From the IMG/VR virus record IMGVR_UViG_3300045988_183746: DNA of 64,000 nucleotides. One strand, given 5' to 3'. The position numbers and the translations under genes were made by a program. Of the stretch, positions 34,646 through 55,964 are shown one piece after another. Source of the stretch: a virus. The stretch's first letter is position 1, and the number at the start of each line of letters is the position of its first letter. Under the pieces are notes generated by a model that worked only from the letters and a program-made list of their open reading frames with translations, was not told the DNA's origin and searched no databases.

Positions 34646-34767
34646 GACTTGACTATACTCCCACTCCACATAGGAAGGCTGCTTTGCGAGCAACTGGTTC
34701 TCCTTATGTGGTGTGGACGGATAACCGCTATTTATTCAGGTTACAGACAGGTTCAGATTTACCTGCA

Positions 34768-38651: not shown

Positions 38652-39334
38652 GGGAGTAACTCCCTAAAAATGGTGTCCGCTTCAATGGTAAAGTAGGGTT
38701 GTAAGTTAAAATCAAACCTCTTTACTCATTATGTAAGTGTCTGAAAAAGAATTAGTATCTTTACATCAGTAAAGAAAATCAAAGACAATATGGAAGAATT
38801 TAATATTCACGAAGTAGCAGAGGAAAACAATCTGGATGTGATTAGTACCACAACCGGGAAAAATGGATATCCACAGTCGGTTAGATATGCAATCACCGGT
38901 TTCCCTAATTTTTCAGAGGCAGAGAAATTGGCCGAGAAATACGGATTGCGTATCACTACTTTCTGGAAAAAAGCAGGTTGGCAACTCTATGTCAGAGACC
39001 GCAATACGACATTCGAGCCGATGGGCATTTCAGCCGAAAATTATGGCGATGATTACATGGCATTCGATTCAAGCAGTGCGGAATCGTTTTATGAAGACGA
39101 AGTGAAACCATTGCTGGATGACATCAATAGCCTTGAAGACTTGGAGAAATTTGTGTCTGGCCGCAAAGAATTGCTTGACGAGATCAAGAGTATCGACGAA
39201 ACCCAATTGGTAATAGCCTGCCATGGCCATTATTATGAGACGATAGATAAGGAAACAATGGAATGGTCGTTCGATTCGAATACTTATGTTATCGGAGTTA
39301 TCAAAGACTAATAATTAAGCGTATGAAAACATAT
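38652..39334 (+). repeat. 683-bp direct repeat, copy 1 (promoter plus acidic-protein gene plus first 12 nt of next gene)
   Basis: About 98-99% identical to 54704-55386. Confidence 0.9.
38790..39311 (+). CDS. Acidic hypothetical protein, possible ArdA-like anti-restriction DNA mimic (speculative)
   Basis: 173 aa with a net strongly acidic D/E-rich central region (GDDYMAFDSSSAESFYEDEVKPLLDDINSLEDLEKF); a duplicate lies at 54842. Confidence 0.65.
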   Translation: MEEFNIHEVAEENNLDVISTTTGKNGYPQSVRYAITGFPNFSEAEKLAEKYGLRITTFWKKAGWQLYVRDRNTTFEPMGISAENYGDDYMAFDSSSAESFYEDEVKPLLDDINSLEDLEKFVSGRKELLDEIKSIDETQLVIACHGHYYETIDKETMEWSFDSNTYVIGVIKD

Positions 39335-39625
39335 AGTGTATATTTTACAGAGCCTGTCACCCGCCACTACAAAGGGGACAAGTTCAACCAAAAGACCAAA
39401 CAGTGGGAACATGACGTAGATTGCGAAGAAACCAAAGACACCTTCACTTTCTACTCTCTCCCTCCGGCCAAGAAGCTTATTAAGGCAAACATGGACAAAT
39501 ACAAGGGTTCAAGTATCACAAAAACATGGGCCAACGGTGATTGGGAAAACCTTGGTGAAATCAAGCTTACCGGGAACAACAAGACCTTCGTGGCAAATTC
39601 CCGCCAGAAGAAAGCCGGATATTGA
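39323..39625 (+). CDS. Hypothetical protein
   Basis: ATG at 39323 (MKTYSVYF...); the ORF-track entry 39263..39625 starts inside the upstream gene's end. Confidence 0.5.
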   Translation: MKTYSVYFTEPVTRHYKGDKFNQKTKQWEHDVDCEETKDTFTFYSLPPAKKLIKANMDKYKGSSITKTWANGDWENLGEIKLTGNNKTFVANSRQKKAGY

Positions 39626-39936
39626 TTACCAAAACATTAAAGACGAAGATTATGAAATTAAACAATAGTGACTGTTACGATTCAATCATGGTGACCCTGG
39701 CTCCGGACAAGTATCCTACTGCATTCGCCAATAAGGTGGACGAACTGATAGAACAGAATCAGTTCAAGACTAGGGAAGAAGCCGAAGCGTATGTTTCCGG
39801 CACTCCCATTGAGTTGGAACTGTATTACGAGAAAGGGACCGGATTGTTTGCAGTGGAAGCGGAAGCCGTCGAATCCGGAACAATCTACTCCCCTTATACC
39901 AAGGAACTGCTGGAAGATGCAGATTGCGATTGTTAA
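39622..39936 (+). CDS. Hypothetical protein
   Basis: 104 aa; 4-nt overlap with the previous gene. Confidence 0.5.
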   Translation: MITKTLKTKIMKLNNSDCYDSIMVTLAPDKYPTAFANKVDELIEQNQFKTREEAEAYVSGTPIELELYYEKGTGLFAVEAEAVESGTIYSPYTKELLEDADCDC

Positions 39937-39969
39937 ATCACTCACTTTAACCATTAAAAAACAAGACCT

Positions 39970-40146
39970 ATGAAACGTATTACTTCAAACGATATTATCC
40001 CGGGATTCCAGTTTATGCATGCGGGTATCCCTGCAACCGTGAAACATGTATCGGACGGCTTTGCCCGTTTCATCTCTGACGATGGATCAGAAGCCGGTTC
40101 CATCGCCGTAATCGCATTGGTCAATATGGCCAACCGTACTATCTAA
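39970..40146 (+). CDS. Hypothetical small protein (58 aa, below the ORF-track cutoff)
   Basis: ATG at 39970 through TAA at 40144-40146, in the gap before the helicase gene. Confidence 0.3.
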   Translation: MKRITSNDIIPGFQFMHAGIPATVKHVSDGFARFISDDGSEAGSIAVIALVNMANRTI

Positions 40147-40157
40147 AAACTGAAATT

Positions 40158-42590
40158 ATGAGTCGTATATTAGAATCACTGAATGACAGACAGCGTGAGG
40201 CTGTCCAGGCTACAGAAGGCTACTTCCGTATCATTGCCGGAGCAGGCAGTGGCAAAACTAAGACTTTGACACATCGCTTTGCCTATCTGGTGCAGGAAAT
40301 CGGTGTTCCTTCCAACCGAATCCTCTGTGTTACCTTCACCAACAAGGCGGCAGCTGAAATGCGTGGCAGAGTAAAGCAGCTTTTGGGCGAGAACATCACT
40401 GACGAATACATCTGTACTTTCCACAGTTTCTGTGTGAAGGTTCTCAGACGCGAGATCCAGCGATTGGGATACCAGCAGACATTCAGCATCCTGGATATGA
40501 CTGACCAGAAATCATTGATCAAAGAGGTATTCGAAGAAATGGGTCTTTCATCCAATGACGGCATTACAGCCAAGGATGCCCTGAAACACATAGAGATGTG
40601 CAAGACCGGAGAGGGATGGGAACATGTTGTCAAGCTGCTTGTCGCTCCCAATGACCCTGTCATCCCGGCAGAAGCAGAAGTGAAAGACAGGATCCTGCTG
40701 AATTACCTGACCCTGCAGCGCAAGAACTTGTCCTTGGATTTCAATGACCTGATTTCCTTTACGCTGTATCTTCTTCAGACAAACCATCAGGTGCTTGACA
40801 CTTGGTCAAACGCTTTCAGCTATATCATGGTTGACGAGACACAGGACAACTCCAGACGTCAATGGGCCATGCTGGAATTGTTGGCTAAAGCTTGCCGGAA
40901 CTTGTTTGTCGTAGGAGATCCTGACCAGGCCATCTATTCTTTTAGAGGGGCACGTCCCGAGGGGTTGGTCAAGTTTGACAAGGTGTTCTCCCCATGCACC
41001 ACGATAGTGCTGGACCAAAATTACCGTTCAACACCTACTATCCTTGGAGCGGCCAACGACATCATTGTACACAACCGTTTACGTGTGAAGAAGGAATTAT
41101 ACACCGACAACGTTGATCCGGGCAGCCCGATTGAATGGATTCATGCCGATAATGACAAGAACGAGTCACTATATGTGGCATCCAAGGTACAGAGTTTACT
41201 TGAAAATGGAGCCAAGTCTGATGACATCGCCGTATTGTTCCGTGTGTCTGCCCTCTCCCGTTCCGTCGAACAGGCGTTCATCCAAAATGGTATCAAGTAT
41301 CAGGTGTTTGGTGGTATGCGGTTCTTCGAACGCAAGGAGATTAAGGATGTCATGGCTTATCTGACCATGGCCGAGACTCCCGACAATGACATGGCTTTCC
41401 TTCGGACATACAACTATCCGTCCCGTAAGTTGGGAAAGGCTTTTATCAACCGGATTAAGGAACTGGCCAAAGCGGACGGAAGCTCATACTTTGCCGCCCT
41501 GCTCAAGCATTATGGTTCTGTCAAGGAGGTCACCCGCTCCGGTGCTGCCGAATACATCAAACTGGCCAATCAGATTCAGGGACTAAAAGGCGGCTCAATT
41601 TCTGACTTGGCAACATATATTTTGGACCAGACCGGTATCATGAAAGAATTACGGGAATCTGAGGATACCGAAAGGCTGGACAACGTAGTAGAGCTTCAGA
41701 ACTCCATCCTGTCTTATGAAAACGAGCATAAGGATGATGAAGATTTTTCATTGAAGACATACCTTCAGGACATTTCCTTGTACACCAACGTGGATGCCAA
41801 GGATAAAGAAGACAGCATCAAACTGATGACCATACACCAGTCCAAGGGACTGGAATTTCCCTATGTGTTCCTTATCGGATGCAACGAGGGTGTCATGCCC
41901 AACCAGCGGTGTGTGTCTGAGACCCGTCGTGAAGGGTTGGAAGAGGAACGCCGGTTAGCGTACGTGGCCGTAACCCGTGCCAAACTGCAACTGTTTATCA
42001 CCGAGAACGAAGGACAATTCTACGGTGGCGGCAACAGGGTGCCGTCCAGGTTTATCTTTGAGATAGACAGCAAACGCATCCAACGTAATGGGTATGTGCC
42101 CGAATACCTGGCAGAGATGACCCGGAAAATCATCCAAAATGAAGGACTGGAATTTGATTCCAATGGAGATTATGATGTGCTGACAATCGGAACACGTGTC
42201 AAACATCCGGCATTTGGTGACGGTACCATTGAAAAGGTGGAAAGTTCCCGTAATGAGTATCTTATCCGGATGGACCGTACTGACAGCCTGATGCATATCC
42301 GTATGGACTATAAGGGACTCACAGTGATTACAGACGCTCCCAAAGACGATAATACGACTGACTGTTTACCTGCCGATGAACCGGAATCCCAACCAACGGA
42401 AGAGGTGGTTGAACCCACTGCCCCGGCTCTCATGTGGAAAGCCGGAGACGAAGTAATACACCCGCTTTTCGGTCTGGGAAAAATCATGGAGGTGAACCCA
42501 GACAGCAGGGAGTATTCTATCTATGTGAACCAAGGTGGGTTTACCATCTCCGTAGATTTCAATTTTGACGGGCTGAGAGCCAAATCTTGA
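40158..42590 (+). CDS. UvrD/PcrA/Rep-family superfamily-1 DNA helicase with two C-terminal Tudor-like repeats
   Basis: Walker A AGAGSGKT, canonical UvrD motifs (VTFTNKAA, VDETQD, ...), and a C-terminus with GTRVKHPAFGDGTIEKV and GDEVIHPLFGLGKIMEV repeats. Confidence 0.92.
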   Translation: MSRILESLNDRQREAVQATEGYFRIIAGAGSGKTKTLTHRFAYLVQEIGVPSNRILCVTFTNKAAAEMRGRVKQLLGENITDEYICTFHSFCVKVLRREIQRLGYQQTFSILDMTDQKSLIKEVFEEMGLSSNDGITAKDALKHIEMCKTGEGWEHVVKLLVAPNDPVIPAEAEVKDRILLNYLTLQRKNLSLDFNDLISFTLYLLQTNHQVLDTWSNAFSYIMVDETQDNSRRQWAMLELLAKACRNLFVVGDPDQAIYSFRGARPEGLVKFDKVFSPCTTIVLDQNYRSTPTILGAANDIIVHNRLRVKKELYTDNVDPGSPIEWIHADNDKNESLYVASKVQSLLENGAKSDDIAVLFRVSALSRSVEQAFIQNGIKYQVFGGMRFFERKEIKDVMAYLTMAETPDNDMAFLRTYNYPSRKLGKAFINRIKELAKADGSSYFAALLKHYGSVKEVTRSGAAEYIKLANQIQGLKGGSISDLATYILDQTGIMKELRESEDTERLDNVVELQNSILSYENEHKDDEDFSLKTYLQDISLYTNVDAKDKEDSIKLMTIHQSKGLEFPYVFLIGCNEGVMPNQRCVSETRREGLEEERRLAYVAVTRAKLQLFITENEGQFYGGGNRVPSRFIFEIDSKRIQRNGYVPEYLAEMTRKIIQNEGLEFDSNGDYDVLTIGTRVKHPAFGDGTIEKVESSRNEYLIRMDRTDSLMHIRMDYKGLTVITDAPKDDNTTDCLPADEPESQPTEEVVEPTAPALMWKAGDEVIHPLFGLGKIMEVNPDSREYSIYVNQGGFTISVDFNFDGLRAKS

Positions 42591-42629
42591 AAAATTAGTT
42601 TCTTTCGGTTTATTTTTAACAATAGAATT

Positions 42630-42998
42630 ATGAATCGAAAAGAAGTATTTCTCAAGTGCCAGCAATGTATCAATGACATTCAAACGGCAGCAAACTCAAA
42701 GACTTTTATCAAATACCGCAAAGAACAAATTACTTTGCGGTATTTTTTTGTCCGTAACAGACAAATGCTGTCCGTTATACAGACAGATGCAGATATGGTT
42801 CCCGTCCTTCACTTTGTCTTTCTGACGAATGACATAAGGGCTGTGCCGGTCTATATGTACCAACTGCTACCCGGTGATTTCCCGTTTACAGTCCCCCCCT
42901 ACCCTTCCCTTCATCGTTCTCTGGAGATTGCCAGTACGTTCATCCGGTGGCACGAGCTGTCCGCAAATTTCCAGTTTGACATCAGATGGTATGACTGA
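42630..42998 (+). CDS. Hypothetical protein
   Basis: 122-aa ORF. Confidence 0.45.
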   Translation: MNRKEVFLKCQQCINDIQTAANSKTFIKYRKEQITLRYFFVRNRQMLSVIQTDADMVPVLHFVFLTNDIRAVPVYMYQLLPGDFPFTVPPYPSLHRSLEIASTFIRWHELSANFQFDIRWYD

Positions 42999-43518
42999 TA
43001 CGCCATAGGAGCCGACACCGGCTCCTTCCTCCTACTCCGAACAATAAATGGCCTGCATGAAAAAGTTCGAACTCAGGTGCACACAGACATTCAACAACAA
43101 TATAATAGCTTGCTACACAAATAAAAAGTATTTTTGTATAAATCAAAAGTTTAGATTATGAAAAAGAGCAAGAAAAGGCGTAATGCCCCATCCACCCCTC
43201 TGGCAGCATTTCACAAAGGTAGCCGGGATGCGGAGATACAGGCTTTCGGCAAACCGGTACCACGGCACAATGTAGTCACCTCAAAGAAGGTGTATCGTCG
43301 GAATCGCCGGGTAGATTTCGATTGACACGGTTGTCTTCCTTCTTCCACCCGGAGAACCATACTGTCCTCCTATAGATCGTTATTGATAGCTTGAATGAAA
43401 GAGTTTCACTCCCCTATCCTAAATGCTAATATTCTGTATAGGTTAGGAAAACTTATATAAATATACTATATTTGTGATTATTAATGAATTAGAATATTAA
43501 CCATCAAACTTTAAGAAT

Positions 43519-43998
43519 ATGAACATTAACGTAGAGATCTTCAAGAGATACTCCCCGAAGAAGAAAATAGAAATCATCAACAAGCTTACTCCAGCCGAGC
43601 TTTCCATGGTGGAATATGCGACCTTGGTAAGAGTCGTGAAGGAAGCCGGTTATGGCAGAGACAAGTCAAGAAGTAAAGATTTGAATATTCATCCCGACAG
43701 AAGAAAAGGCAATAATTGGGACAGCTTAGTCGAAAGGCTGTCATGGTGCAACGGGAAATTATATGTAGATGTGTATTTTCAATATGAGAACACAGACACA
43801 ACGGTGTGTGTGATAGCCCAAGAGTTTTTCAGCCGAGGGGAATATAAAGGCAGGGTGAAACGTCTGAATCACCATTGTGACGAACAGACTTATTACTTCA
43901 ATTATTCGGAGGAAGAGAAAAGAGAGGTAATGAGAAGTATCCTTCTCGAATATGTCTATAAAAAGTACAAGGACAAACTATCCGAAGGGGAAGAATAG
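43519..43998 (+). CDS. Hypothetical protein
   Basis: 159-aa ORF. Confidence 0.6.
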   Translation: MNINVEIFKRYSPKKKIEIINKLTPAELSMVEYATLVRVVKEAGYGRDKSRSKDLNIHPDRRKGNNWDSLVERLSWCNGKLYVDVYFQYENTDTTVCVIAQEFFSRGEYKGRVKRLNHHCDEQTYYFNYSEEEKREVMRSILLEYVYKKYKDKLSEGEE

Positions 43999-44267
43999 TC
44001 TATATTGGAATCCGGACAAGGCAGGCTGACACAGCTTTCCTTGTTCGGCAACAACTCACACAGAGGGGTATCGGCATGTTTTCTTGCCAACGCAGACCGA
44101 CCACGGTCTGCTGAAATATGGGTGAAATATCGCCGATCGTGGGGTATTTATGGTATCCGCAATAATGGAAAAGTCCGACCTGATACTACTCTTTCCCTTT
44201 TGTTTTCCGGAACTATGAAGACTCCCTATATTTCTGTATATTTGCATCATAATCAATGAGATAAAAG

Positions 44268-44474
44268 ATGATAAACTTCAAGAAACTTAAAAGCCAGATT
44301 AAGCCCTTCAAACCGGAGGCCAAACATAAGGGTTACATCTTCATCGCAACAGATGAACAGATTGCCAACGGTGGATTTACCGTAGCTAAAGTAGGCTCAA
44401 AACGGAGCCTGATAGATTGTATGGCATTCTACATCAAGAAAGAACCGGATGTATGGGCAGATTTGATACTCTAA
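44268..44474 (+). CDS. Hypothetical small protein
   Basis: 68-aa ORF. Confidence 0.35.
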   Translation: MINFKKLKSQIKPFKPEAKHKGYIFIATDEQIANGGFTVAKVGSKRSLIDCMAFYIKKEPDVWADLIL

Positions 44475-44485
44475 AAACAATAACT

Positions 44486-45337
44486 ATGGGACAGTTTAGC
44501 TGGTTTACACAAGACACCAAGCGTAGAATCCGGAACGGAGTTCCGTTTACGGTATATATGACGGATGATAAGGGCAACAAGTACAAAGAGACTTGTTACG
44601 GAGGTTATGGTGTGTTCGGTGGCAAGGATTATTATGAATTGCTTGCAGAGATGAACGGTATCGTGGATAGAAATAAAGAGTATCTTCGTCAGATAGGCAT
44701 CGAACTGGCTTTCAAGAACTCTCCACAGGGATACAACCCGGAAGTGAAGCACCCCTCACTGACCGAGAATGGTTCCTATTACCAAGGGGTAGCACCGATT
44801 TCAGACCCGGACCAAGGTTTTCCATTAGATTACCACTTGGCCGGGGTACCTTCCCATGTCCTTACAGAAGGTATGGAGGTTCTATTGCCAAAGGATGCGA
44901 CCTTTATTGACGTGAATGGCGTTAGTATGTTCTTGCCGACATTGAATCTCTATGAAACTATCACTGTAGATGATATGTATCCGTTCGGGAATTGTCTGGT
45001 GCAGTCAATCAGGGAGGACAAATCAATCATGCTGAAAGACCTTACTTCCGGACTTGAATTTCGGTATTCTGGAAATGTGTTGATTCGGTCAAACGAGATT
45101 GTTCATTCCTACATGGGAAACAATAATAAAGGTGATCTGGTATTGTGTAACGATTGTGAGACCCTTTTGTTGGTTCCCATGGGTACAGACATCTGTCCGG
45201 ATTGCCACTCCGATGGCTGTCTGACTTACCCGGATGATCGTACCGATCACGTTCACGCCACGCAATCAGAATTAAGAGAACAAGGCAACATTGTCATAAC
45301 CCATGATCGTCCGACAGACGAAATGCTATATTCTTGA
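44486..45337 (+). CDS. Hypothetical protein with C-terminal Cys cluster
   Basis: ATG at 44486 (MGQFSWF...) after the 44474 stop; contains CNDCETLLLVPMGTDICPDCHSDGC. Confidence 0.55.
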   Translation: MGQFSWFTQDTKRRIRNGVPFTVYMTDDKGNKYKETCYGGYGVFGGKDYYELLAEMNGIVDRNKEYLRQIGIELAFKNSPQGYNPEVKHPSLTENGSYYQGVAPISDPDQGFPLDYHLAGVPSHVLTEGMEVLLPKDATFIDVNGVSMFLPTLNLYETITVDDMYPFGNCLVQSIREDKSIMLKDLTSGLEFRYSGNVLIRSNEIVHSYMGNNNKGDLVLCNDCETLLLVPMGTDICPDCHSDGCLTYPDDRTDHVHATQSELREQGNIVITHDRPTDEMLYS

Positions 45338-45340
45338 ATT

Positions 45341-45676
45341 ATGGAAAAGGTTCACATTTTAATTAATTCCGGATACGGTCGGTTATCCGGACATTCGGAC
45401 AACCAACATAGGGCGTTCGTACAAGAGGTTACCGCCATATTTGAGTCATTAGGTTGGCAGGTGCCCCAACAGAAGCAAACACCGTTGGCAAAGTCAGGAT
45501 ATAACAGGTTTTTCCTGCATCCCTGTTTCTTTACCGGCTACATCAATGACAAGAAGATTGTGCAAACCATTATGGATGCAGCCAAAAATGCCAAGACCTT
45601 TAGCATATACGGGGTCGAATACAATTATACCGGAAATATATCCGGTCTCTATTTCCCATCTCTGACTCTCAATTAA
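45341..45676 (+). CDS. Hypothetical protein
   Basis: 111-aa ORF. Confidence 0.5.
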   Translation: MEKVHILINSGYGRLSGHSDNQHRAFVQEVTAIFESLGWQVPQQKQTPLAKSGYNRFFLHPCFFTGYINDKKIVQTIMDAAKNAKTFSIYGVEYNYTGNISGLYFPSLTLN

Positions 45677-45898
45677 CTGCTAGGGTGATCCGGTCATTCG
45701 GAACACCCTACTCCCCTATTTGCAGAACCTGACCATCAGGTTCTTATCTGCCAGTAATATGGAGTGGCTTTAATGGAAATGTTTCAACCATATAGGGTGA
45801 AAGAGCTTTCTTAATTTCTATTTCATAAACACATTGAATTTAAGTAACTTTGTGTATATCAAATAGATAGATATAATAAAGAACATAATTAAATAGTT

Positions 45899-46396
45899 AT
45901 GAAAAAGATAATATTCTCCACCGAAATCACAGATGAAGATCTGAAATGCGCAGAAGAATGGTTACAGGAACAAGGCTATCCATCCAGTGAAATGGCTATT
46001 TGTGAAGAAGCCGCTGAACAAAAGCGGAATTGGCAGGATGACGAAATAAGCAATCTCGATATGTTTTTGGAAGGAAACATCCTTCTGATAGCGGATTTAG
46101 GCTTGTGGAACGGACGAAAATCGGGATACCGGATAATTGACAATAATGTTGGCAATATATTGTCTTCACTATCTGAAGGTGAAATAGAATACTTTGCAGA
46201 CACTCAGACCAAACAGGTGAAAGCAGTCCAACATCATCATGACGGAACAAACTATATTACATTCCGGGAGATTAAGCCAGGTGTGAACATAGATAACCTG
46301 ACAGAAAAGATTTACAACGGTACATACACACAAAAGGATATTTCTCGATACACCCGGAGCTTGTACCCTCATGTTGCCAAGGTTTATGGATGGTAA
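45899..46396 (+). CDS. Hypothetical protein
   Basis: 165-aa ORF. Confidence 0.6.
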   Translation: MKKIIFSTEITDEDLKCAEEWLQEQGYPSSEMAICEEAAEQKRNWQDDEISNLDMFLEGNILLIADLGLWNGRKSGYRIIDNNVGNILSSLSEGEIEYFADTQTKQVKAVQHHHDGTNYITFREIKPGVNIDNLTEKIYNGTYTQKDISRYTRSLYPHVAKVYGW

Positions 46397-46651
46397 CGCA
46401 TTCCAGCCGCTTTTTAGCGGCTGCAGTATAAAAGTCTGGTGGAGGAGCCAAAAAAATAAAGCCGGAACACTCGTACAGGGACGGGGAAAAGTCGAAGCAA
46501 GGCACTAAGAAAGAACCTGTCCCACAAACAACACACACGCCAAAACGACACAAACGGCTGAATAAAACAGGACCTGAAATTGTAATGCGCATTACAAAAG
46601 CATAAAAACAGATTTCCTGCTTGTACTTCCGGAATAATAGCCTTTCTTTTT

Positions 46652-46678
46652 ATGTGTACCAACTTTGGTACACATAAA
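46652..46678 (+). promoter_or_regulatory. Perfect 11-bp inverted repeat TATGTGTACCA-actt-TGGTACACATA, putative antitoxin operator
   Basis: Lies 15 nt upstream of the antitoxin ATG at 46693. Confidence 0.5.
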
Positions 46679-46692
46679 AAGAAAAGAACAGT

Positions 46693-46947
46693 ATGCTACA
46701 AGTAACATCAAGGGAATTTAGGGACAAGCAAGCCTCTTGGGTTGACATGGCAGATCAAGGCTAACAAATTGTTATCAGACGCAGAGGCAAACGCTCCTAC
46801 ATGCTGACACCCGTCTACGACAGTGATATTACAACCACCCACAAATTTGAACAGAAGATAGAGGAAGCACGTAGGCAATACAAAAACCGGGAAACAATCG
46901 TCTGCAATACCAAAGAAGAACTTCACGACTTATTGGATACGTTATGA
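46693..46947 (+). pseudogene. Phd/YefM-family antitoxin with in-frame TAA at 46762-46764
   Basis: MLQVTSREFRDKQASWVDMADQG*QIVIRRRGKRSYMLTPVYDSD... matches the Phd/YefM N-terminal pattern; its stop overlaps the toxin ATG (TGATG). Confidence 0.65.
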
Positions 46948-47214
46948 TGTACAAGATTGAATTTTCAAAGGGTGCGACAAAACCACACCCAAATACAAAA
47001 AGTCCAATCTTGTACTCTACAAAAAACTGGTGAGTCTTCTTGAAGAAATCATGGCCCCCGTACAGGGACCGGACACCCGGAACCTTTAAAGGCAGGAAAC
47101 TCTGTCAGCTATTCAAGACGGACAACGGCACATGACAGGTTGATATATGACATCTATGATGAAACCGTTACCGTCATGGTTATTGAAATAGAAGGACACT
47201 ATAAAGATAAGTAA
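46947..47214 (+). pseudogene. RelE/ParE-family toxin disrupted by at least two frameshifts
   Basis: N-terminal MYKIEFSKGATK in frame A, then ...KKLVSLLEEI in a second frame, then C-terminal ...HDRLIYDIYDETVTVMVIEIEGHYKDK (classic RelE/ParE C-terminus) in a third frame. Confidence 0.65.
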
Positions 47215-47472
47215 ATGGGAATGATAAAGACACAATTCCCCTGCGGTATGTTATGGCTAAGTGAAACTGATACCATCTGCGGCCATGACGGAAAGATTTG
47301 CGGTGCTGTTAAATACCAAGATGAACAGTTCAAAATCATCCAGCCGGAAGAATGCATGGGGCACAAAAGGGACATAATGAAGGAATTAAAAGAAGCTTTG
47401 CAACAGGTCAAAGATCACCTAGACGGTAAAATACAACTCAAATCGATAGAAGCCTTGTTAGATGAACTTTGA
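47215..47472 (+). CDS. Hypothetical protein
   Basis: 85-aa ORF; its start overlaps the toxin stop (TAAATG). Confidence 0.45.
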   Translation: MGMIKTQFPCGMLWLSETDTICGHDGKICGAVKYQDEQFKIIQPEECMGHKRDIMKELKEALQQVKDHLDGKIQLKSIEALLDEL

Positions 47473-47515
47473 GTTTGTTTCATCTGATTTATTCGACCCA
47501 TTTAATTTGCCCTTT

Positions 47516-47539
47516 CGGGAACGCGCTCACGTTCCCTAT
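47516..47539 (+). repeat. Palindromic element CGGGAACG-N6-CGTTCCCTAT (family 1), copy 2
   Basis: Reads cgggaacgcgctcacgttccctat. Confidence 0.6.
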
Positions 47540-47667
47540 CAAGTATTTTTACCAAAGTAAATGGATTGGCTTCAATGAGAGAGTCACGACCTACTTGCTT
47601 GATATTATAATCCGTTTGGTTTTCTTTTATGTCCAATGTTTTTTATATTTTTGCATAGAATAAAACA

Positions 47668-48081
47668 ATGATTATGGACACCTTAACACTCAAAGAAAGA
47701 TATTTCTCTGCCATTCATAGCATGAGAGAAGCACTTAAATATTACGTTTCCGAGAATGGAAACGATTATTCGGATTCTCCCGAATATTACGCAAACGAGT
47801 TCGGCATTTATCCGGACAAAAAGGAACGACCATCTAAAATGTTGGAACTAAATTGTACTTATGCCCATTATGTAGAGGGCAAAGGAGTAGAATCTGTCCA
47901 AATCCAACTATTATATACGGTTGCTGATGACGAAGGTAATGAGGAACTGATGTATTATGGCTTCTATAACGGTAGAGAAGAAATCGAAGATGATTGTGAA
48001 CCTATTCACGCTAAAGCCATAACTTTAGCAGATGAAGAACTGATGAATATAATAAAGGGTATCGACAATCCTGCCAACTGA
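47668..48081 (+). CDS. Hypothetical protein
   Basis: 137-aa ORF. Confidence 0.55.
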   Translation: MIMDTLTLKERYFSAIHSMREALKYYVSENGNDYSDSPEYYANEFGIYPDKKERPSKMLELNCTYAHYVEGKGVESVQIQLLYTVADDEGNEELMYYGFYNGREEIEDDCEPIHAKAITLADEELMNIIKGIDNPAN

Positions 48082-48144
48082 GATACCCCCTTCGGGGGGG
48101 TATGATATAAATTTGTCCTGTAGAACAAGCAAATAGCACTAATA

Positions 48145-48879
48145 ATGAACCGATTGAAATACAATAATAATAATTGGCACGAAAGAGACAACCACATCTT
48201 TTTCGATGAAGAACCGCATATTTATACCCATGACAGACTAGGTAAGATGGATAGCTGGACGGAAATCATTGCGTCCTATTTTGCTCCTTTCGATAAGGAA
48301 CGGGTAGCCTCATTTGTAGCCCAGAGACGGGGTTGCTCACCGGAGGAACTGATTGCCGAATGGGAACACCAGACCCATTTGGGCACCAAGCTCCATGCCA
48401 ATATCGAAAACTATTTGCTTTCTTTGCCGCATGACGAGTCAGATGTTTTCTGGCAGTTCAAGAATTTCATCACAGAGCATCCGATGGTTCCTTATCGTAC
48501 CGAGTGGACTATCTATGACGAAGAAAGCCGAGTGGCAGGTACAATTGATTCATTGGATTTCCATGTATGTAACCTGATGTTGGACTGGAAGCGGAGCAAG
48601 AACCTGATAGACCAGGATGGGAACGTCATCCGGGATTCCTACAATCATACTATGGGATTGGGAGTACTCTCACACCTCCCGGATTGTTCCTACTATCACT
48701 ATGCCATGCAACAGTCCGGGTACCGGTATATTCTCAAGAAGAATTACGGCATCGAAATCGAAGCCTGTTGGCTGGCAGTGTTCCATCCGACACTCCTTAA
48801 CTACAAATTGATAAGACTCCCCTATCTGGAGGAAGAAGTAAAAGCAGTACTGGCTGAACGTGCTGCCAGATTTAGATAA
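48145..48879 (+). CDS. PD-(D/E)XK-family nuclease (Cas4/RecB-nuclease-like fold, putative)
   Basis: GTIDSLDF ... LMLDWKRSK fits the D...(D/E)xK catalytic pattern; C-terminal YYHYAMQQSGYRYIL. Confidence 0.55.
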   Translation: MNRLKYNNNNWHERDNHIFFDEEPHIYTHDRLGKMDSWTEIIASYFAPFDKERVASFVAQRRGCSPEELIAEWEHQTHLGTKLHANIENYLLSLPHDESDVFWQFKNFITEHPMVPYRTEWTIYDEESRVAGTIDSLDFHVCNLMLDWKRSKNLIDQDGNVIRDSYNHTMGLGVLSHLPDCSYYHYAMQQSGYRYILKKNYGIEIEACWLAVFHPTLLNYKLIRLPYLEEEVKAVLAERAARFR

Positions 48880-49015
48880 GCTAATATGAATTACTACAAC
48901 TCAAAAGTTGTAATAATAAAAGTCAAATGCCTATCCCTTTCATCCCCTTTGAGAATACATTATGCCAAGACAACTCTGCTCACGGCAGTTTTCCAGTACG
49001 CTTTATTTGTTCTCC

Positions 49016-49039
49016 CGGGGACGTACTCACGTCCCCTAT
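49016..49039 (+). repeat. Palindromic element CGGGGACG-N6-CGTCCCCTAT (family 1), copy 3
   Basis: Reads cggggacgtactcacgtcccctat. Confidence 0.6.
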
Positions 49040-49322
49040 GATCCCCCTCCTTATAAAGTAGATGCAGGCATTGTGACTGCTCTGCTTATATGAGAATGTA
49101 TGAACCTGAACATTCACCGGAGGCATTTCATTATCTATATCATTATAATACAGCATTTTAGTATCTTTGAATATGAAAGATAACCAAAATTAGTCATGGG
49201 AATAGGAAGAGAAAAAATAGACTGGGATGATTTCTTACTAAATGAAATTTTCAGCCCTCATTGAGGGAGCGATGATGTAAGACCGGAAGATAACAGCGAG
49301 TATTCTTGCACTACAGCTAAGT

Positions 49323-50108
49323 ATGTATGCAATTTTTGTGAAACAGAATTTTTTAAAGAACATTGATATGGGAAACATGGAAATAAAGAACTTGGATGAA
49401 GCACGTAGAATTCAAGAAGGGGTATTGAATTATTATATTGGAGTCATTTGCTCCGGACTCTACCCGCAGAACAACTTGCCACACCTGATTTTCTTTGAAG
49501 ACGTGGACGATAAGGGTGAACCTGTGTTCCGCAAAGCCGAGGTTATCGAAATCCTTGGTGCAACTAAAGAAGTTGTCATTAAGTACAAGAATGGAGAAAA
49601 GGAAACGATCAATCTTTCAGCCATCAATATTGACTGGCTTCAGGACTTGGCAAACTACCAGTTCCGAATGTACGATTTACTGGAACAAGGAGAGCCAGAC
49701 ACTTTACCGGGATGCATAACATATCAGATTATCCTTTCTGAATTCATCGACAAATATGGATGTGATGACCATGAAGGAAGAGTCTTAATCGGCAATAAAA
49801 CCAATGGAGAGATTATAACGCTCATGAAAGAGCTGGATGATCTTAGCATCGACAACCAGTCTGACATTACATTTGAATGTGGATCATTCCGGGTATTGGA
49901 ATATTCCCAAGGTGATGCGCACTATAAACTATCCGAAGAGAGTTTAAGCCAGAAACTGATTGATCCTGGGATCAGCGAGCCATACAACAAAAAATGTACA
50001 GCGTTGGATGATGAATTCCAATTCTACGTTGGCAATGATTTTTGGGAGAAATCCACCTTGCAGAAAAAGCTGTTCATCCTTCAAGAAATATTCGATGTAA
50101 AGCTGTGA
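49323..50108 (+). CDS. Hypothetical protein
   Basis: 261-aa ORF; an alternative start is M16. Confidence 0.55.
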   Translation: MYAIFVKQNFLKNIDMGNMEIKNLDEARRIQEGVLNYYIGVICSGLYPQNNLPHLIFFEDVDDKGEPVFRKAEVIEILGATKEVVIKYKNGEKETINLSAINIDWLQDLANYQFRMYDLLEQGEPDTLPGCITYQIILSEFIDKYGCDDHEGRVLIGNKTNGEIITLMKELDDLSIDNQSDITFECGSFRVLEYSQGDAHYKLSEESLSQKLIDPGISEPYNKKCTALDDEFQFYVGNDFWEKSTLQKKLFILQEIFDVKL

Positions 50109-50330
50109 TTTTTTATATATACGGTTGTTCCATACAAAGTACGGTGCAACCAGTTTCACTCTGCATTCCAATTCTGGCGAAACTTGAACCCAAGTTTCTT
50201 TCAGTGTCCCCTATTTCCCTTTTGCTTATATGGAATAGTAGAACCCTGCCACAGAGTTCTGATATGGTGATATATATTGGGTAATGTGCTGGGATTTCTG
50301 TAACTTTACAATGTTGAAAGACAAAGAATT

Positions 50331-51117
50331 ATGAAATATTACATCGTTGTATCATCGGCAGGAGACACAAAGGTTGTCGTTTTGCCAGCAAACTGGGACA
50401 ATGGCAGTTTGAACGTCTGCCTGTCAAGATTAAAGACAGATGCCCAAGGCGAATTCAGAGGTGGGATGAAAATTTTCACAGAGATAAATCAAGACGAGTA
50501 CCGTAAGGTAACAGGTGATTCCTATCTGAGTAGTAATTATGCAAGCCATCCAAATTTTTTTAGAGGGGATATCTTGCCAGAAGACTGGAGAGAACAGGCG
50601 ATGGCTGTCCTGACATCAGGCGGTTGGATTGACCAGTTAGGCTGGGAGGATGACCTTGCCAAGCTGGTGGACGAACAGATTGATTCAGCCCCAAATGTTC
50701 GACCTCATGCAGGCACACATGACAGGACTGGATCCCGTTTTGGAACTGGAGGCATACGACAGGTGGTTATATGGAGAGGCTCTGGCAGCCCAAAGAAAAG
50801 AGACCGAACAATCAGTTTCAAAGGAAGAACAATCCGTCTTCACCTTCTTGGTCGATTGCCAGTACAAGGTGTGGGAACGCCATACCGTTACCGTAAATGC
50901 CGACACCTATGAAGAAGCCAAGCAACGAGTAATCAACTTGGCAAAGAATCACCCTGTAAGTATGGATGACGGCGAGCCTGGACTGGAAATGACCTTTGAG
51001 ACTCTTTACGAAACAGAAGAACTGATTGAACCCGAAAATGGTAAAGAAGCAACAGTTCAAGTAATGAACTATGCACCATTCAGTGAGAGAAAGGTCTTAT
51101 ACGAGAACGCCAAATAA
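50331..51117 (+). pseudogene. Hypothetical protein apparently split by a frameshift near 50690-50700 (ORFs 50331..50912 and 50650..51117)
   Basis: The first ORF is protein-like for about 120 aa and then becomes Arg-rich low-complexity. The frame 1 ORF is protein-like from about 50690, and the junction sits at a CCCC/AAA run. Confidence 0.45.
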
Positions 51118-51269
51118 CTATTCTTCAAATGAGATAAAGGGGGTCAACGGTGTGCGAACATAGTTGACCGCACAAACACTACAAAGTGTTTGGTATTTAG
51201 TTAATTGTGAAATGGACTGCCTGTATGTGAATATGGGCAGTTTTTTCTTTTTGACTTAGGTATATCCCC

Positions 51270-51293
51270 GGAGTCCCACAACGGACTCCTATT
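51270..51293 (+). repeat. Hairpin element GGAGTCC-CACAAC-GGACTCC-TATT (family 2), immediately followed by an iteron-core copy CCACCTATGGGG (51288-51299)
   Basis: 7-bp perfect stem, plus a Rep-iteron core motif about 50 kb away from the origin. Confidence 0.5.
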
Positions 51294-51434
51294 GTTACCA
51301 CCTATGGGGATAAAGATTGAGATCCTTTAAGAGGGAGAACTTAAGCATTTGGTTTTGCTTAAATGAGAATGTTTTCATCGCCCACCATTAGATCTTTCTT
51401 ATTGATGTCATTATTTAATAGAACCATATTTATG

Positions 51435-51442
51435 TATCTTTG
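51435..51442 (+). promoter_or_regulatory. Bacteroidota -7 promoter element TATCTTTG
   Basis: The ORF-track start (TTG, 51440) lies inside this motif; the real ATG is at 51467. Confidence 0.5.
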
Positions 51443-51466
51443 TATCAAACGATTAACAATAAACAC

Positions 51467-53008
51467 ATGAGACATTTAACATTAAATCAAGAATACCAAA
51501 ACCAGACAGCGCAACTTATGTTTTCCTTTGGAGAGGAACAGCAATATGATATACCAGTTAGACAGGTTACTACCTGTTCAAAGACTGATACAAAATTATC
51601 TACCGTACCAGAGTACCTTAATAATCTGAGCAAGGACTGTTTTTCTTTAGAAGAGTTGCTTGGCAAAATAAATGCAGATACGGTATATTTTGGTCGTAAC
51701 AAACGTGGACAAATTGCCAATGTTAATGGAAATGTTATTTTTGCGGGCGGTATGGCAAGCCGAATATTGCCCAATGCCCTTTTACGGTCAGTTCCTAATG
51801 CTCTGGCTCAAGGCGAGGGATATTTGGAATTTGACACATTTGTGGTTACTCTTGGCTATTTTGATGATTGTGCAAGATTGTGGAATGCAAAATTAAATAT
51901 TGTACTTGACAAAAAAATGAAATTGAGTTCATTCTATAGTTCCACTTACCCTTATAATTGCACTGAGTTTTCATTGGGGAAATGGTCAATGGTAAAGAAG
52001 CAAAAATTTACAATATACCACTATTTCATTCAGTCCAAAGAGGAACTTACAGGAATTCTTGAAAAGAACGCTCCCTATACTGCGAAATGGGCAGCAGAAA
52101 AAGGTGCTGATGTACGTTGTATGCTCCTTGCTCCTCAAATAGAAATACTTAGCAAAGCCGGATATTTGTTTGCTGACTCATTCATTGAATATGACTCTAT
52201 TTCCGAAGAAAATTGTGTAATTTTCAACAGGCTCTGCCAACAGGGGACAAAACCAAAGGATATATTTAAAACCAGCAAAATGGTGTATTCTATATTAAAG
52301 GGGGAATTGGATCTTGAAATTTGGGATTGCTATCGTAAACTGGCTAAGCTCGGAAAGATTGACGCAGACCATATCCAACAGGCTTACGACCAAAATTTCA
52401 AAAAGGCAGATTTAGAGGGGTTAAACTCCATTCTTAGCAAACAATATGACGGAAAACCAGTGTTTACTTGGAATAGTCTGATGCAGTATTTAGTTAGACT
52501 TGACACCTTTGAAGCAATAGAGAAAAAGGAAGCTTTCATGTTGCTTAATGATTATTTGTCCATGTGCAACCAACTCAAAATGCAGCCCCGCATCAACGGA
52601 GATAGTCTGAAAAGGGAACACGACATTGCAGCACGTAACTGCCGTAACCGAAAAAACAAAATCATGGCTGAACGTATGCAGAACAACTGCGAGAAAATGA
52701 AGAAATACGACTACACAGAGGGAGTCTATTTTGTTCGGGGCATCCGAAGTCACGATGATCTTTTGGACGAAGCCAACCAGCAACATAACTGCGTGGCAGC
52801 GTATGGATCAAGAATTGCCAACGGCTCTTCATACATCTACGTGCTGAGAGAAGTCGCCAAACCGGACAAGAGCTTAATCACCATAGAGCTTTCTCCGGAC
52901 GGACGGAACATCAGACAAAAGTACCTTGCCTACAACCAGCCTGTCCGGAACAGGTCGCAAAGTGAGTTCATAGACCGCTGGATGAAACACAACAGACTGG
53001 TAGGTTAA
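51467..53008 (+). CDS. PcfJ-like domain protein
   Basis: C-terminal ...DEANQQHNCVAAYGSRIANGSSYIYVLREVAKPDKSLITIELSPDGRNIRQKYLAYNQP matches the PcfJ-like HCV-containing domain. Confidence 0.65.
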   Translation: MRHLTLNQEYQNQTAQLMFSFGEEQQYDIPVRQVTTCSKTDTKLSTVPEYLNNLSKDCFSLEELLGKINADTVYFGRNKRGQIANVNGNVIFAGGMASRILPNALLRSVPNALAQGEGYLEFDTFVVTLGYFDDCARLWNAKLNIVLDKKMKLSSFYSSTYPYNCTEFSLGKWSMVKKQKFTIYHYFIQSKEELTGILEKNAPYTAKWAAEKGADVRCMLLAPQIEILSKAGYLFADSFIEYDSISEENCVIFNRLCQQGTKPKDIFKTSKMVYSILKGELDLEIWDCYRKLAKLGKIDADHIQQAYDQNFKKADLEGLNSILSKQYDGKPVFTWNSLMQYLVRLDTFEAIEKKEAFMLLNDYLSMCNQLKMQPRINGDSLKREHDIAARNCRNRKNKIMAERMQNNCEKMKKYDYTEGVYFVRGIRSHDDLLDEANQQHNCVAAYGSRIANGSSYIYVLREVAKPDKSLITIELSPDGRNIRQKYLAYNQPVRNRSQSEFIDRWMKHNRLVG

Positions 53009-53019
53009 CGAATAAGGTT

Positions 53020-53048
53020 CCTGCCCAATTCGGGCAGGTTTCTTTATG
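53020..53048 (+). terminator. Rho-independent terminator (CCTGCCC/GGGCAGG stem plus TTTCTTTAT)
   Basis: 7-bp stem with a 5-nt loop and a T-rich tail right after the 53008 stop. Confidence 0.65.
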
Positions 53049-53065
53049 TCCGTATGCCGTGTTCG

Positions 53066-53089
53066 GAGCCCCACCATTGGGCTCCTTTT
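53066..53089 (+). terminator. Hairpin element GGAGCCCC-ACCAT-TGGGCTCC-TTTT (family 2)
   Basis: Perfect stem plus T-run; near-identical to the element at 4367. Confidence 0.6.
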
Positions 53090-53221
53090 AGCTTATAAAA
53101 GGATAGGAAAGCTTAAATGAAAGAGTAGGTATCATCCCCTATCCTACTATTCCCTTTGGCTATATTTCGTTATGAGAGACCATTTATATATCTTTGTATC
53201 AAAGAATTAAATCAAACAAAT

Positions 53222-53587
53222 ATGGAATATAAAGAATTAGTGGAGCAGGAAAGCCAGCTAAAAAAGAGCCAAGTCTTGTACATCAAAGAGGTTCTCGCCC
53301 AAAACAACGGACGGGTGGAAATGAAATACAAGCCCCAAGAAGAGTTTGAGGACGAAAGTGACAATGAAACAGACTGTTTCTACGATCAGTTCCCGGTCAT
53401 GATTGCCGTTCCGGGTAGACACGGTACGTTCAATCTCCATGTAACTGCGGTTTATGAGGATCATAACGGAAGCCTTCGTTGCGAAGGTATCAACGACAAT
53501 ACCGACTCTTTGGAAAAGAAGATATACTTCTGCGACGAATCCTATTCCTCCATCGCATATTTTCTGCATCAAATAACAAACAAATAA
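53222..53587 (+). CDS. Hypothetical protein
   Basis: ATG at 53222 (MEYKELVEQ...) downstream of the promoter motif at 53189-53196. Confidence 0.5.
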   Translation: MEYKELVEQESQLKKSQVLYIKEVLAQNNGRVEMKYKPQEEFEDESDNETDCFYDQFPVMIAVPGRHGTFNLHVTAVYEDHNGSLRCEGINDNTDSLEKKIYFCDESYSSIAYFLHQITNK

Positions 53588-53597
53588 TCCTTATTGT

Positions 53598-53819
53598 ATG
53601 AACAAGAAAGAGATTTTACCACAGCAAGTTGTTCCTGGAAAGACCTATTCATTTTCCGGTGACATCAAGAACGGATGCTATGCCGACGGTACACCACGTA
53701 TCTCTCATGAAGAGGTCACCAGAGAGGTGTCCTATGTAAAAGATAACCTGATTGTCTGCGTGTGCGGACGCCAATTTATCATTAACGAGAACTTGAAAAT
53801 CCAAAAGTTCCCTTATTAA
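53598..53819 (+). CDS. Hypothetical small protein
   Basis: 73-aa ORF. Confidence 0.45.
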   Translation: MNKKEILPQQVVPGKTYSFSGDIKNGCYADGTPRISHEEVTREVSYVKDNLIVCVCGRQFIINENLKIQKFPY

Positions 53820-53847
53820 AATCCAAGACAAACAAATAAGCATAAGT

Positions 53848-54324
53848 ATGAATATCGAGAATTTGAGAAATAGAGTGGATGCTCTTCAAAAGACAGAAAA
53901 TACACTCTTAGTTCTGGCAATGCACAAAGCGGGATTGAAAAATGTGAATTGTTCCGACAAACAACTGAATCTTTGTGCCGTTCTTGCAGGGAATCCTGTC
54001 ATCTTCAAAGTCAAGGAATTTTGGATGGAGGGTGATTCTGGTAAGGAAACAGTATTCTTTTTAGGATGTTGCGACCCGATTGAACATATCACCCTCAAAT
54101 GCGAGGATATTCTTCCCGGAATGGTATCTAATATTCTGGAACACATACCCAATGTGAATGTTTCCGATTTGTCTGTGTTGCCACAGGGTACAGATGATGA
54201 TATTGACGAAGCATTAGTATCATCGTTAGAGTATTTGGAGCAAGAAAGAGACTGCATTTGTGACACGGAATTATACGAAAGATGCTGTAAATTAGAAAAG
54301 TCCAGACAGCATTTCTGGGACTGA
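53848..54324 (+). CDS. Hypothetical acidic protein
   Basis: 158-aa ORF. Confidence 0.55.
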   Translation: MNIENLRNRVDALQKTENTLLVLAMHKAGLKNVNCSDKQLNLCAVLAGNPVIFKVKEFWMEGDSGKETVFFLGCCDPIEHITLKCEDILPGMVSNILEHIPNVNVSDLSVLPQGTDDDIDEALVSSLEYLEQERDCICDTELYERCCKLEKSRQHFWD

Positions 54325-54598
54325 TTACCTTATTCGATTTAACCAATCCTTCCTGTCCGGATTTCCTGGACAGGAATCAAACATATCTATAGCATGAACA
54401 TAAATGTACTCACGATCCGGAGAACATCTACACAGGTGTGATGGTTTCGGATGAATCTCTCATTCAGGATTATATCGAAACAAACGAATATACCGAGACT
54501 GCCGAGCATATCATGCGTCTCCAGAAAGCACAGGCCGTTGCTTTCATTGCAGACGCATGGGAACTGACACTTGTTCCTTGCGTCTGATCTTCATCGAC

Positions 54599-54622
54599 CG
54601 GGAACGCACACCCGTTCCCTAT
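54599..54622 (+). repeat. Palindromic element CGGGAACG-N6-CGTTCCCTAT (family 1), copy 4
   Basis: Reads cgggaacgcacacccgttccctat; a degenerate copy (GGGAAC..GTTCC) lies just upstream at 54559-54579. Confidence 0.6.
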
Positions 54623-54703
54623 CCCCTAATCTGGTGACATTTGGAAATAAGCATAACGAACACAGAAAGAACGCAACCTGAAACTTTGCGATTTAGTTAT
54701 ACC

Positions 54704-55386
54704 GGGAGTAACTCCCTAAAAATGGTGTCCGCTTCAATGGTAAAGTAGGGTTGTAAGTTAAAATCAAACCTCTTTACTCATTATGTAAGTGTCTGAAAAA
54801 GAATTAGTATCTTTACATCAGTAAAGAAAATCAAAGACAATATGGAAGAATTTAATATTCACGAAGTAGCAGAGGAAAACAATCTGGATGTGATTAGTAC
54901 CACAACCGGGAAAAATGGATATCCACAGTCGGTTAGATATGCAATCACCGGTTTCCCTAATTTTTCAGAGGCAGAGAAATTGGCCGAGAAATACGGATTG
55001 CGTATCACTACTTTCTGGAAAAAAGCAGGTTGGCAACTCTATGTCAGAGACCGCAATACGACATTCGAGCCGATGGGCATTTCAGCCGAAAATTATGGCG
55101 ATGATTACATGGCATTCGATTCAAGCAGTGCGGAATCGTTTTATGAAGACGAAGTGAAACCATTGCTGGATGACATCAATAGCCTTGAAGACTTGGAGAA
55201 ATTTGTGTCTGGCCGCAAAGAATTGCTTGACGAGATCAAGAGTATCGACGAAACCCAATTGGTAATAGCCTGCCATGGGCATTACTATGAAACGGTAGAT
55301 AGGGAAACAATGGAATGGTCGTTCGATTCGAAAACATATGTTATCGGAGTTATCAAAGACTAATAATTAAGCATATGAAAACATAT
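54704..55386 (+). repeat. 683-bp direct repeat, copy 2
   Basis: Matches 38652-39334 with a few substitutions clustered near the 3' end. Confidence 0.9.
54842..55363 (+). CDS. Acidic hypothetical protein (duplicate of the 38790 gene; possible ArdA-like)
   Basis: 173 aa, differing from copy 1 at 3 residues (I/V, K/R, N/K). Confidence 0.65.
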   Translation: MEEFNIHEVAEENNLDVISTTTGKNGYPQSVRYAITGFPNFSEAEKLAEKYGLRITTFWKKAGWQLYVRDRNTTFEPMGISAENYGDDYMAFDSSSAESFYEDEVKPLLDDINSLEDLEKFVSGRKELLDEIKSIDETQLVIACHGHYYETVDRETMEWSFDSKTYVIGVIKD

Positions 55387-55427
55387 CAGACATCGTGTAT
55401 GTGGCGATGTCATAAAACCACTATAAT

Positions 55428-55964
55428 ATGGAGTTACCTAAAAAAGCAGCCAAACTTTTTGCAGATAATGCCAAATTACAAAAAATGGCATACAACATGA
55501 TGGTCGAAATTTGTAAAGGACACGGTGGAAAGTTTAGATTTTCATCTGATCTTTGCATTGATTTAGACTATGGGGTTATCGGAGTAACGACCTGTAACTT
55601 GAAAGGAATGTATCTTAAAGATGATTATCTTTTGGTTGAAAGCACTACTACTGACGGTGGATGTAGCAAAGATGTACATGTACTCAACAAGCAAAGCCTT
55701 GAGATTCTTGAAATTTTACAGGATGCAACCATCTTAGGTAATGAAGAGGTATTTTTAAAGGAACATCCCAGCCCGGAGACAGTAACGGATGATGATATAG
55801 AAAGTGCATGGGTGATGCTGGCAGATGTACCTGTCAATTCAAAAGGAAAAATTGACCGGGATTTCCTATATTGGGAAAAGGGAACAGATCGGAAAGTTAT
55901 CTGGAACTGGTTTGACCAAAATCACAGCCTGGGAATTGGATTTCATATAGACAACTATGGATAA
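55428..55964 (+). CDS. Hypothetical protein
   Basis: 178-aa ORF; a truncated paralogue lies at 56548. Confidence 0.55.
   Translation: MELPKKAAKLFADNAKLQKMAYNMMVEICKGHGGKFRFSSDLCIDLDYGVIGVTTCNLKGMYLKDDYLLVESTTTDGGCSKDVHVLNKQSLEILEILQDATILGNEEVFLKEHPSPETVTDDDIESAWVMLADVPVNSKGKIDRDFLYWEKGTDRKVIWNWFDQNHSLGIGFHIDNYG

Follow-up and report, generated by a model that had tools for sequence, protein, structure and literature searches.

An abundance of anti-defence genes has been reported for the leading regions of conjugative elements (PMC11541004, PMC13478746). In Bacteroides, a circular, amplified 17-kb sub-region of the conjugative transposon (CTn) CTn214 has been reported; this circle, which bears an integrase and tetQ, was confirmed by polymerase chain reaction (PCR) and by coverage (PMC10865816). 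Here we analyse a stretch of 64,000 nucleotides (IMG/VR record IMGVR_UViG_3300045988_183746, in full length called the window) in which two direct repeats, each with a gene for an acidic protein of 173 amino acids (aa), bracket a segment of 15.4 kb. Our best explanation is that the window comes from the accessory region of a very common Parabacteroides/Bacteroidales integrative mobile element, and that the two copies are an old, diverged pair, either paralogues or orthologues brought together by recombination between related elements, with both kept functional. Their near-identity in the window would come mostly from assembly collapse, and the protein would be an establishment or anti-defence factor other than ArdA. 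We assign this explanation, taken jointly, a probability of about 0.65.

Two copies and their parental versions

In the window the repeats are collinear, each 683 bp long, and an offset comparison sets them 16,052 bp apart (coordinates are collected in Table 1). The mismatch list contains 8 differences, corresponding to 98.8% identity, at positions 39227, 39233, 39239, 39243, 39250, 39281, 39284 and 39321. All of them fall within the last 108 of the 683 bp, for which the chance probability is about 4e-7, and bp 1-575 show no difference between the window copies. The proteins differ by I152V, K154R and N164K. The flanks of the two copies are unrelated on both the left and the right side. At its 3' end the repeat takes in the first 12 nt (ATGAAAACATAT) of a 100-aa open reading frame (ORF); after copy 2 these 12 nt stand as a remnant (55375-55386) and are followed by unrelated sequence. 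A preliminary description of this DNA, made from the letters alone, had put the identity at about 98-99%. Our measurements agree with it in this respect, as they do in the three amino-acid changes at the 3' end, the 12 nt shared with the next gene, the diverging flanks and the bracketed 15.4-kb segment with its UvrD, exonuclease-like and PcfJ genes.

Each copy had also been credited with its own promoter, which was not demonstrated: the sole candidates are a Bacteroides -7-like box with one mismatch (TATCTTTA at 38756) and a weak sigma-70-like match. A hairpin of 13 nt (GGGAGTAACTCCC) starts both repeats and has no other occurrence in the window. We considered it as a recurring cassette boundary and ruled this out, given its presence at the two copies only.

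The parental state of the pair is best seen in one assembly, L040 (GCA_024125345.1), where 23 differences, distributed along the entire 683 bp, separate the two copies (96.6% identity). We name its upstream copy (copy 1) version A and its downstream copy (copy 2) version B. The coding sequences of A and B are separated by 12 synonymous and 8 non-synonymous changes, with a synonymous divergence (dS) of 0.127, a non-synonymous divergence (dN) of 0.019 and a dN/dS of 0.15, a ratio indicating that both copies are under purifying selection. In about 50 sampled copies the variable sites almost all match A or B, with few private variants. The two commonest variants are pure B (at least 1000 contigs) and pure A (936 contigs), the longest contig measuring 911 kb. 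Pure A is found at copy 1 both in MEGAHIT k141 contigs (L029, L031, L046) and in NCBI assemblies (L044, L048, L049). The biological copies are probably about 96.6% identical.

Of the contigs carrying the inner 244-aa gene, the 24 longest (L038-L041 among them) all have both copies and the same gene order, and in NCBI genomes of Parabacteroides merdae the A and B proteins are annotated about 20 loci apart. The duplication is real and fixed in the element. The flanks hardly vary between contigs: 0-2 single-nucleotide polymorphisms (SNPs) were counted over 2246 bp of left flank and 0-3 over 1514 bp of right flank, which is below 0.1%. Set against the dS of 0.127 between A and B, this low divergence implies that the copies are much older than the spread of the element.

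Expressed in A and B alleles, copy 1 of the window reads AAABB-B10-A8 and copy 2 reads AAABB-B10-B8. The 3' SNP block is fixed together with the right-hand flank in all long contigs. To describe the mosaics we used four blocks of the protein: H/Y7, K/R32, the patch 79/97/124 and the tail 152/154/164. All 14 mosaic combinations are present, with 184-364 contigs each. At 184 and 191 contigs, the mosaics that call for two conversion tracts occur about as often as those that call for a single one. Mosaics within a block have only 3-23 contigs each. The block borders correspond to identical runs of 68, 64, 139 and 66 nt, and almost no switches occur in identical runs of 43 nt or less, though such runs account for 42% of the interval. 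Equalisation of the 5' blocks in a given contig is complete (the window, L038, L039, L041) or absent (L040). Where protein accessions about 22 numbers apart are taken as belonging to single NCBI genomes, the blocks of one or two SNPs are equalised and the 137-nt patch is in phase with the tail.

In de Bruijn assemblers, SNPs closer than k form one bubble, and bubbles collapse to an arbitrary branch. The collapsed edge is threaded twice by the contig, and only the SNP block contiguous with unique flank stays copy-specific. To judge from the population statistics, the mosaic pattern fits bubble collapse near k=55 better than gene conversion. A short-read assembler of this kind would have popped the A/B bubbles and written one mosaic consensus into both copies; the contig would then have passed twice through the collapsed edge, and the 3' SNP block next to the unique flank would have remained copy-specific. 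We consider it likely that the perfect identity over 575 bp in the window is mostly an assembly product. Both the 98.8% identity and the concentration of differences at the 3' end are probably properties of this assembly.

Several points weigh against this reading. Haplotypes of low frequency, seen repeatedly in independent samples, have switches within runs of 30-43 nt; one example is the tail AAAAABBB, with 9 contigs from several studies. A graph built with k=55 cannot create switches across 30-43 nt, so some genuine exchange between A and B may occur. Recombination with a long minimal identity requirement would likewise disfavour short runs. The homogenised state would be real if the window were a long-read or finished assembly. 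The within-block variants come from a sample of about 25 of the 343 cluster members, and the assembler parameters (k=55 and the bulge-length limits) are assumed values.

Junction contigs and possible recombination between the copies

A rival explanation concerns structural variation: the repeats would drive a real deletion of the 15.4-kb segment, leaving one hybrid copy, and the formation of a 16-kb circle or tandem amplification. Both types of junction are indeed present among public contigs. Five contigs connect the left copy-1 flank with the right copy-2 flank, as a deletion would (L047, inside a 213-kb contig, and L001, L005, L013 and L019), and four connect the left copy-2 flank with the right copy-1 flank, as a circle or tandem array would (L002, L015, L018 and L037). 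The amplified circle of the Bacteroides CTn cited above adds a reported case of this kind. However, the same two junctions are exactly the mis-joins, loop-skipping and loop-closing, that a collapsed repeat loop is expected to give, and these contigs could be either mis-joins or real recombination products.

Several features would suit the former. Most junction contigs are short, with a coverage of 0.8-2.5x where their names state it, and the four flank combinations are about equally common among short contigs. Of about 24 long contigs with the flank gene, a single one has just one copy. The longest contig is 10-20 kb in 1975-2372 assembly blocks for the inner genes compared to 537 for the flank gene. 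This excess, reaching 2372 against 537, is what assembly breaks and loops would produce, suggesting that the repeat pair routinely breaks or loops assemblies of the element. We regard real structural variation at these repeats as plausible but unproven, and as less likely than not. The preliminary description had called the pair a substrate for RecA-dependent deletion or amplification; as a substrate for homologous recombination it is plausible, and the segment may or may not actually undergo deletion or amplification.

Concerted evolution offers another account, in which RecA-dependent gene conversion homogenises the first 575 bp or so while the 3' 108 bp or so escape at the edge of homology. 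We took up this reading first, since sites that vary between contigs have matching alleles in the two copies of 4 out of 5 long contigs. It is also favoured by the finding that the A-type and the B-type patch are each attached to either 3' block and flank, and by the recurrence of rare within-block recombinants in independent samples. It was down-weighted after the haplotype-frequency test, where all 14 block mosaics proved near-equal in frequency, including those that need two tracts of opposite direction. The all-or-none homogenisation within contigs, the avoidance of short identical runs by switches and the place of pure A and pure B as the two commonest variants likewise speak against it. 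Gene conversion is consequently an unlikely source of the pattern; the ongoing conversion proposed earlier is not needed, since the mosaic statistics are those of assembly-graph collapse. A recent in-situ duplication with new mutations as the few differences, the other origin proposed earlier, would suit the 98.8% identity and sharp borders of the window copies and is nevertheless highly improbable in view of the clustering of the 8 differences, the 23 sites and dS of 0.127 between the parental copies with flanks diverging by less than 0.1% across contigs, and 3' differences that are fixed and copy-specific in every long contig.

The copy-1 module is also found, together with its right flank, in a second element context. 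In L031 (1-10100) the A-type copy is cut off at window position 38960 and adjoins a region of a different element, which bears RteC, AraC, Imm17, AAA_25 and an RnlA/RnlB toxin-antitoxin pair. This contig suggests that the A module moves between elements, and the two copies may be orthologues joined by recombination rather than the result of duplication in situ. An ancient segmental duplication of the whole 16 kb was ruled out by comparing all ORFs of both repeat neighbourhoods against each other. That comparison returned no paralogue pair except one of 31%: the unannotated ORFs 45899-46396 (165 aa, inside the segment) and 58633-59070 (145 aa, outside) are distant paralogues with 31.5% identity over 111 aa.

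Copy 2 and its right flank vary in individual contigs. L027 (48.9 kb) has a 225-bp deletion (window 55350-55575) that fuses copy 2 in frame to the 178-aa ORF behind it, giving a 295-aa protein at 10001-10888. L028 has, near 10122, a 36-bp in-frame deletion in copy 2 (window 54963-54998), resulting in a 161-aa protein, and at 11067-12119 an insertion of about 1 kb at window position 55944, part of which is 75% similar to window 34610-34805. The gene tables of L033, L035, L039 and L041 list the same extra ORFs (183, 104 and 68 aa) at that insertion site. The right flank of copy 2 further contains a 60-nt direct repeat (55668-55727 and 56731-56790, 77% identity, 1,063 bp apart).

The pair is a worked example for genome scanning, in that real paralogues can mimic a fresh duplication or gene conversion when a short-read assembler gives the two copies the same arbitrarily chosen consensus. 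Spurious deletion and circle contigs arise from that graph structure as well, and repeat-driven plasticity in elements taken from metagenomes should therefore be claimed only with support at the level of reads.

The acidic protein and its family

Both copies of the 173-aa protein have an isoelectric point (pI) of 4.4, with 35 D/E against 16-17 K/R and a net charge of about -19, in line with the strong acidity noted earlier. The copy-2 protein, WP_238004635.1, is annotated as 'hypothetical protein' of Parabacteroides merdae. No family was matched by either copy in Pfam (hmmscan, E<=0.1) or by copy 1 in NCBIfam, and PHROG and PADLOC gave no match for the protein. A PDB sequence search, made with the single sequence and with a profile of 92 sequences, found no match either.

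After clustering at 50%, the family collected by an exhaustive profile search (E<=1e-3) comprises 707 representatives. Every member with a name is called 'hypothetical', Pfam domains are absent throughout, and the N- and C-terminal extensions of longer members gave no Pfam clue. Acidity is a property of the family as a whole, with a median pI of 4.35 and a median net charge of -20 among 97 full-length members. T21, G26, Y27, P28, G37, F38, A48, G63, D162 and I168 are near-invariant. As these positions are mostly glycine, proline or hydrophobic, we read the protein as a predicted scaffold or binding protein rather than an enzyme.

Structure prediction from the 92-sequence alignment yielded a mean predicted local distance difference test score (pLDDT) of 97.2 and a predicted template modelling score (pTM) of 0.86; a 6-sequence alignment gave a pLDDT of 57 and an unusable model. 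The predicted fold would begin with an alpha/beta unit at the N-terminus, continue with a long acidic helical hairpin and end in a beta-sheet. A fold search of this model against the PDB returned no neighbour. The protein belongs to a large, unnamed and uniformly acidic family of Bacteroidota mobile elements that has no known fold relatives.

Relatives are found in same-strand arrays with a reverse transcriptase, Dam or PemK, in islands with primase-VapE, integrase and ParE, in small islands bounded by integrases, and in islands bearing methylases and toxins. A scan of genome contigs with a narrow alignment detected 5 distant loci that have no synteny to the window. Tandem paralogues in L056 were ruled out, the neighbouring 170-aa ORF being unrelated.

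The preliminary description had called the protein ArdA-like, and here our results diverge from it. With no ArdA hidden Markov model (HMM) match at E<=0.1, no PDB sequence match and a model of pLDDT 97 that lacks a fold neighbour in the PDB, we reject membership of ArdA/Ocr and infer that the protein is not ArdA. ArdA was likewise absent from the families matched at E<=0.01 by the 92 relatives. Among the features expected of ArdA, we found the negative charge and neither a profile match nor the fold of the solved ArdA structures. The idea of one factor kept at two doses also fares poorly, as the copies differ at 8 residues under purifying selection and look more like two variants.

It is conceivable that the protein serves as an establishment or anti-defence factor, possibly acting through its negative surface, and we hold this view tentatively. 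Context and charge are the entire basis of this functional part, which counts as a further point against the overall explanation. An ArdA/Ocr-type DNA mimic that counters restriction would account for the conserved acidity. It would also suit a gene in a mobile-element array with SSB and orphan methylases, as anti-defence genes are reported to abound in regions of this type (PMC11541004, PMC13478746). We nonetheless consider such a factor, and DNA mimicry specifically, unlikely. Comparably improbable, taken jointly, is the fuller proposal that the protein may be the founder of a new acidic anti-defence family, possibly of nucleic-acid mimics, with a new fold, present in Bacteroidota mobile elements and at least one phage, whose two versions serve two targets. 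If this were true, one of the commonest gut mobile elements would keep two diverged versions, with 8 residue differences, for two targets.

The element occurs in thousands of public gut assembly blocks and carries a protein family without a name, a Pfam model or a structural neighbour. Conserved charge and the link to mobile elements make this family a cheap and reasonable candidate for anti-defence screening in Bacteroides or Parabacteroides.

The host element and its likeness to known systems

The proteins come from records of Parabacteroides merdae, Bacteroides congonensis and 'MULTISPECIES Bacteroidales'. They are carried by contigs of up to 911 kb, indicating that the element is integrated, and the inner and flank genes each hit 7,000-9,000 indexed blocks of the assembly collection, which makes the element very common. 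A search for the repeat in plasmid and phage collections gave no match, and a scan of IMG/VR found nothing. Small ORFs, most of them unannotated, follow one another on the same strand over a long distance, with the main ORFs on the plus strand from 33554 to 59664. Aside from the genes listed in Table 1, the bracketed segment holds many unannotated small ORFs. Further upstream lie an integrase fragment, polyvalent-protein domains and a group II intron reverse transcriptase. The window ORFs that were scanned included no identifiable relaxase or oriT, and status as a leading region is unproven.

Table 1. Positions of the repeat pair and of other features in the window
Feature	Position	Strand	Remarks
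Repeat copy 1	38652-39334	+	138 nt upstream, 173-aa coding sequence (CDS), then 23 nt, the final 12 of which belong to the following gene
Repeat copy 2	54704-55386	+	16,052 bp downstream; 8 mismatches to copy 1
Hairpin GGGAGTAACTCCC	38652-38664 and 54704-54716	+	exact left edge of the repeat
Acidic 173-aa CDS, copy 1	38790-39311	+	identical to P0164; 184 public contigs
Acidic 173-aa CDS, copy 2	54842-55363	+	identical to P0163 = WP_238004635.1; 264 contigs
Window copies identical	38714-39160 and 54766-55212	+	15 A/B sites, grouped in four blocks; probably a consensus left by assembly collapse
Copy-specific 3' block	39227-39321 (CTGAATTG) and 55279-55373 (GCAGGAAA)	+	8 SNPs
100-aa ORF after copy 1	39323-39625	+	the repeat ends with its first 12 nt, ATGAAAACATAT
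15.4-kb bracketed segment	39335-54703	all genes +
178-aa ORF after copy 2	55428-55964	+	right flank R2
UvrD-type helicase	40158-42590	+	within bracketed segment
Exonuclease-like protein	48145-48879	+	within bracketed segment
PcfJ-like protein	51467-53008	+	within bracketed segment
Group II intron reverse transcriptase/maturase	302-1564	-	420 aa; RVT_1 + GIIM
C5 methylase	14529-15614
N6-methylase/SNF2 helicase fusion	24735-27755	+	1006 aa
Insertion sequence (IS)-type DDE transposase	31642-33297	-	551 aa; DUF772 + DDE_Tnp_1_6; intact
DUF2786/DUF7168 protein	35287-36060
Protein with PP-binding domain	37033-37641	+	202 aa
SSB	59179-59664
Weak Rep3-like protein	59761-61002	-	413 aa; Rep3 initiator WH1 match, E 7.7e-5

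Some of the neighbouring genes deserve a comment. The N6-methylase/SNF2 fusion is followed by a 626-aa unannotated protein (27953-29833, plus strand), with weak PADLOC matches to mad2, methyltransferase and DpdE models. The IS transposase interrupts the same-strand array and is found at the same site in most related long contigs. Just upstream of copy 1, the PP-binding protein has a C-terminal phosphopantetheine-attachment (acyl-carrier-like) domain, odd for the context, and is conserved in thousands of assembly blocks. The UvrD helicase matches PADLOC GajB models at E 4e-104, which is probably generic similarity within the UvrD helicase family; none of the other segment proteins scanned matched a PADLOC model. 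The weak Rep3-like gene adjoins SSB, though the element is otherwise integrated in contigs of up to 911 kb.

Compared with known cases of short-read collapse of near-identical paralogues, this locus shows the same arbitrary mix of parental alleles common to both copies, the same restriction of switches to identical runs longer than about k, and the same loop-skipping and loop-closing contigs. It differs in a minority of recombinant haplotypes that collapse does not explain, and assembler behaviour is here judged from population statistics. With CTn214 (PMC10865816) the locus shares circle-type junctions for one part, some 16-17 kb in size, of a Bacteroidales conjugative element, whereas the junctions here are only low-coverage contigs at the repeat and the segment is without a recognisable replication or integration gene.

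As regards the protein, ArdA (PF07275) is similarly about 170 aa long, strongly acidic and encoded on conjugative elements among early or accessory genes, but the 173-aa protein has no sequence or profile similarity to it. Its predicted fold matches no PDB entry and is hence neither that of ArdA nor that of Ocr. In the case of the anti-defence islands described by Samuel and Burstein in 2024 (PMC11541004), the element of the window differs in being an integrative element of Bacteroidales, not a plasmid, for which the term 'leading' is unproven. It has in common with them the array of small same-strand ORFs, SSB, the orphan C5 and N6 methylases and UvrD, and thus presents the same-strand array with SSB, methylases and other establishment genes that is expected of such an island.

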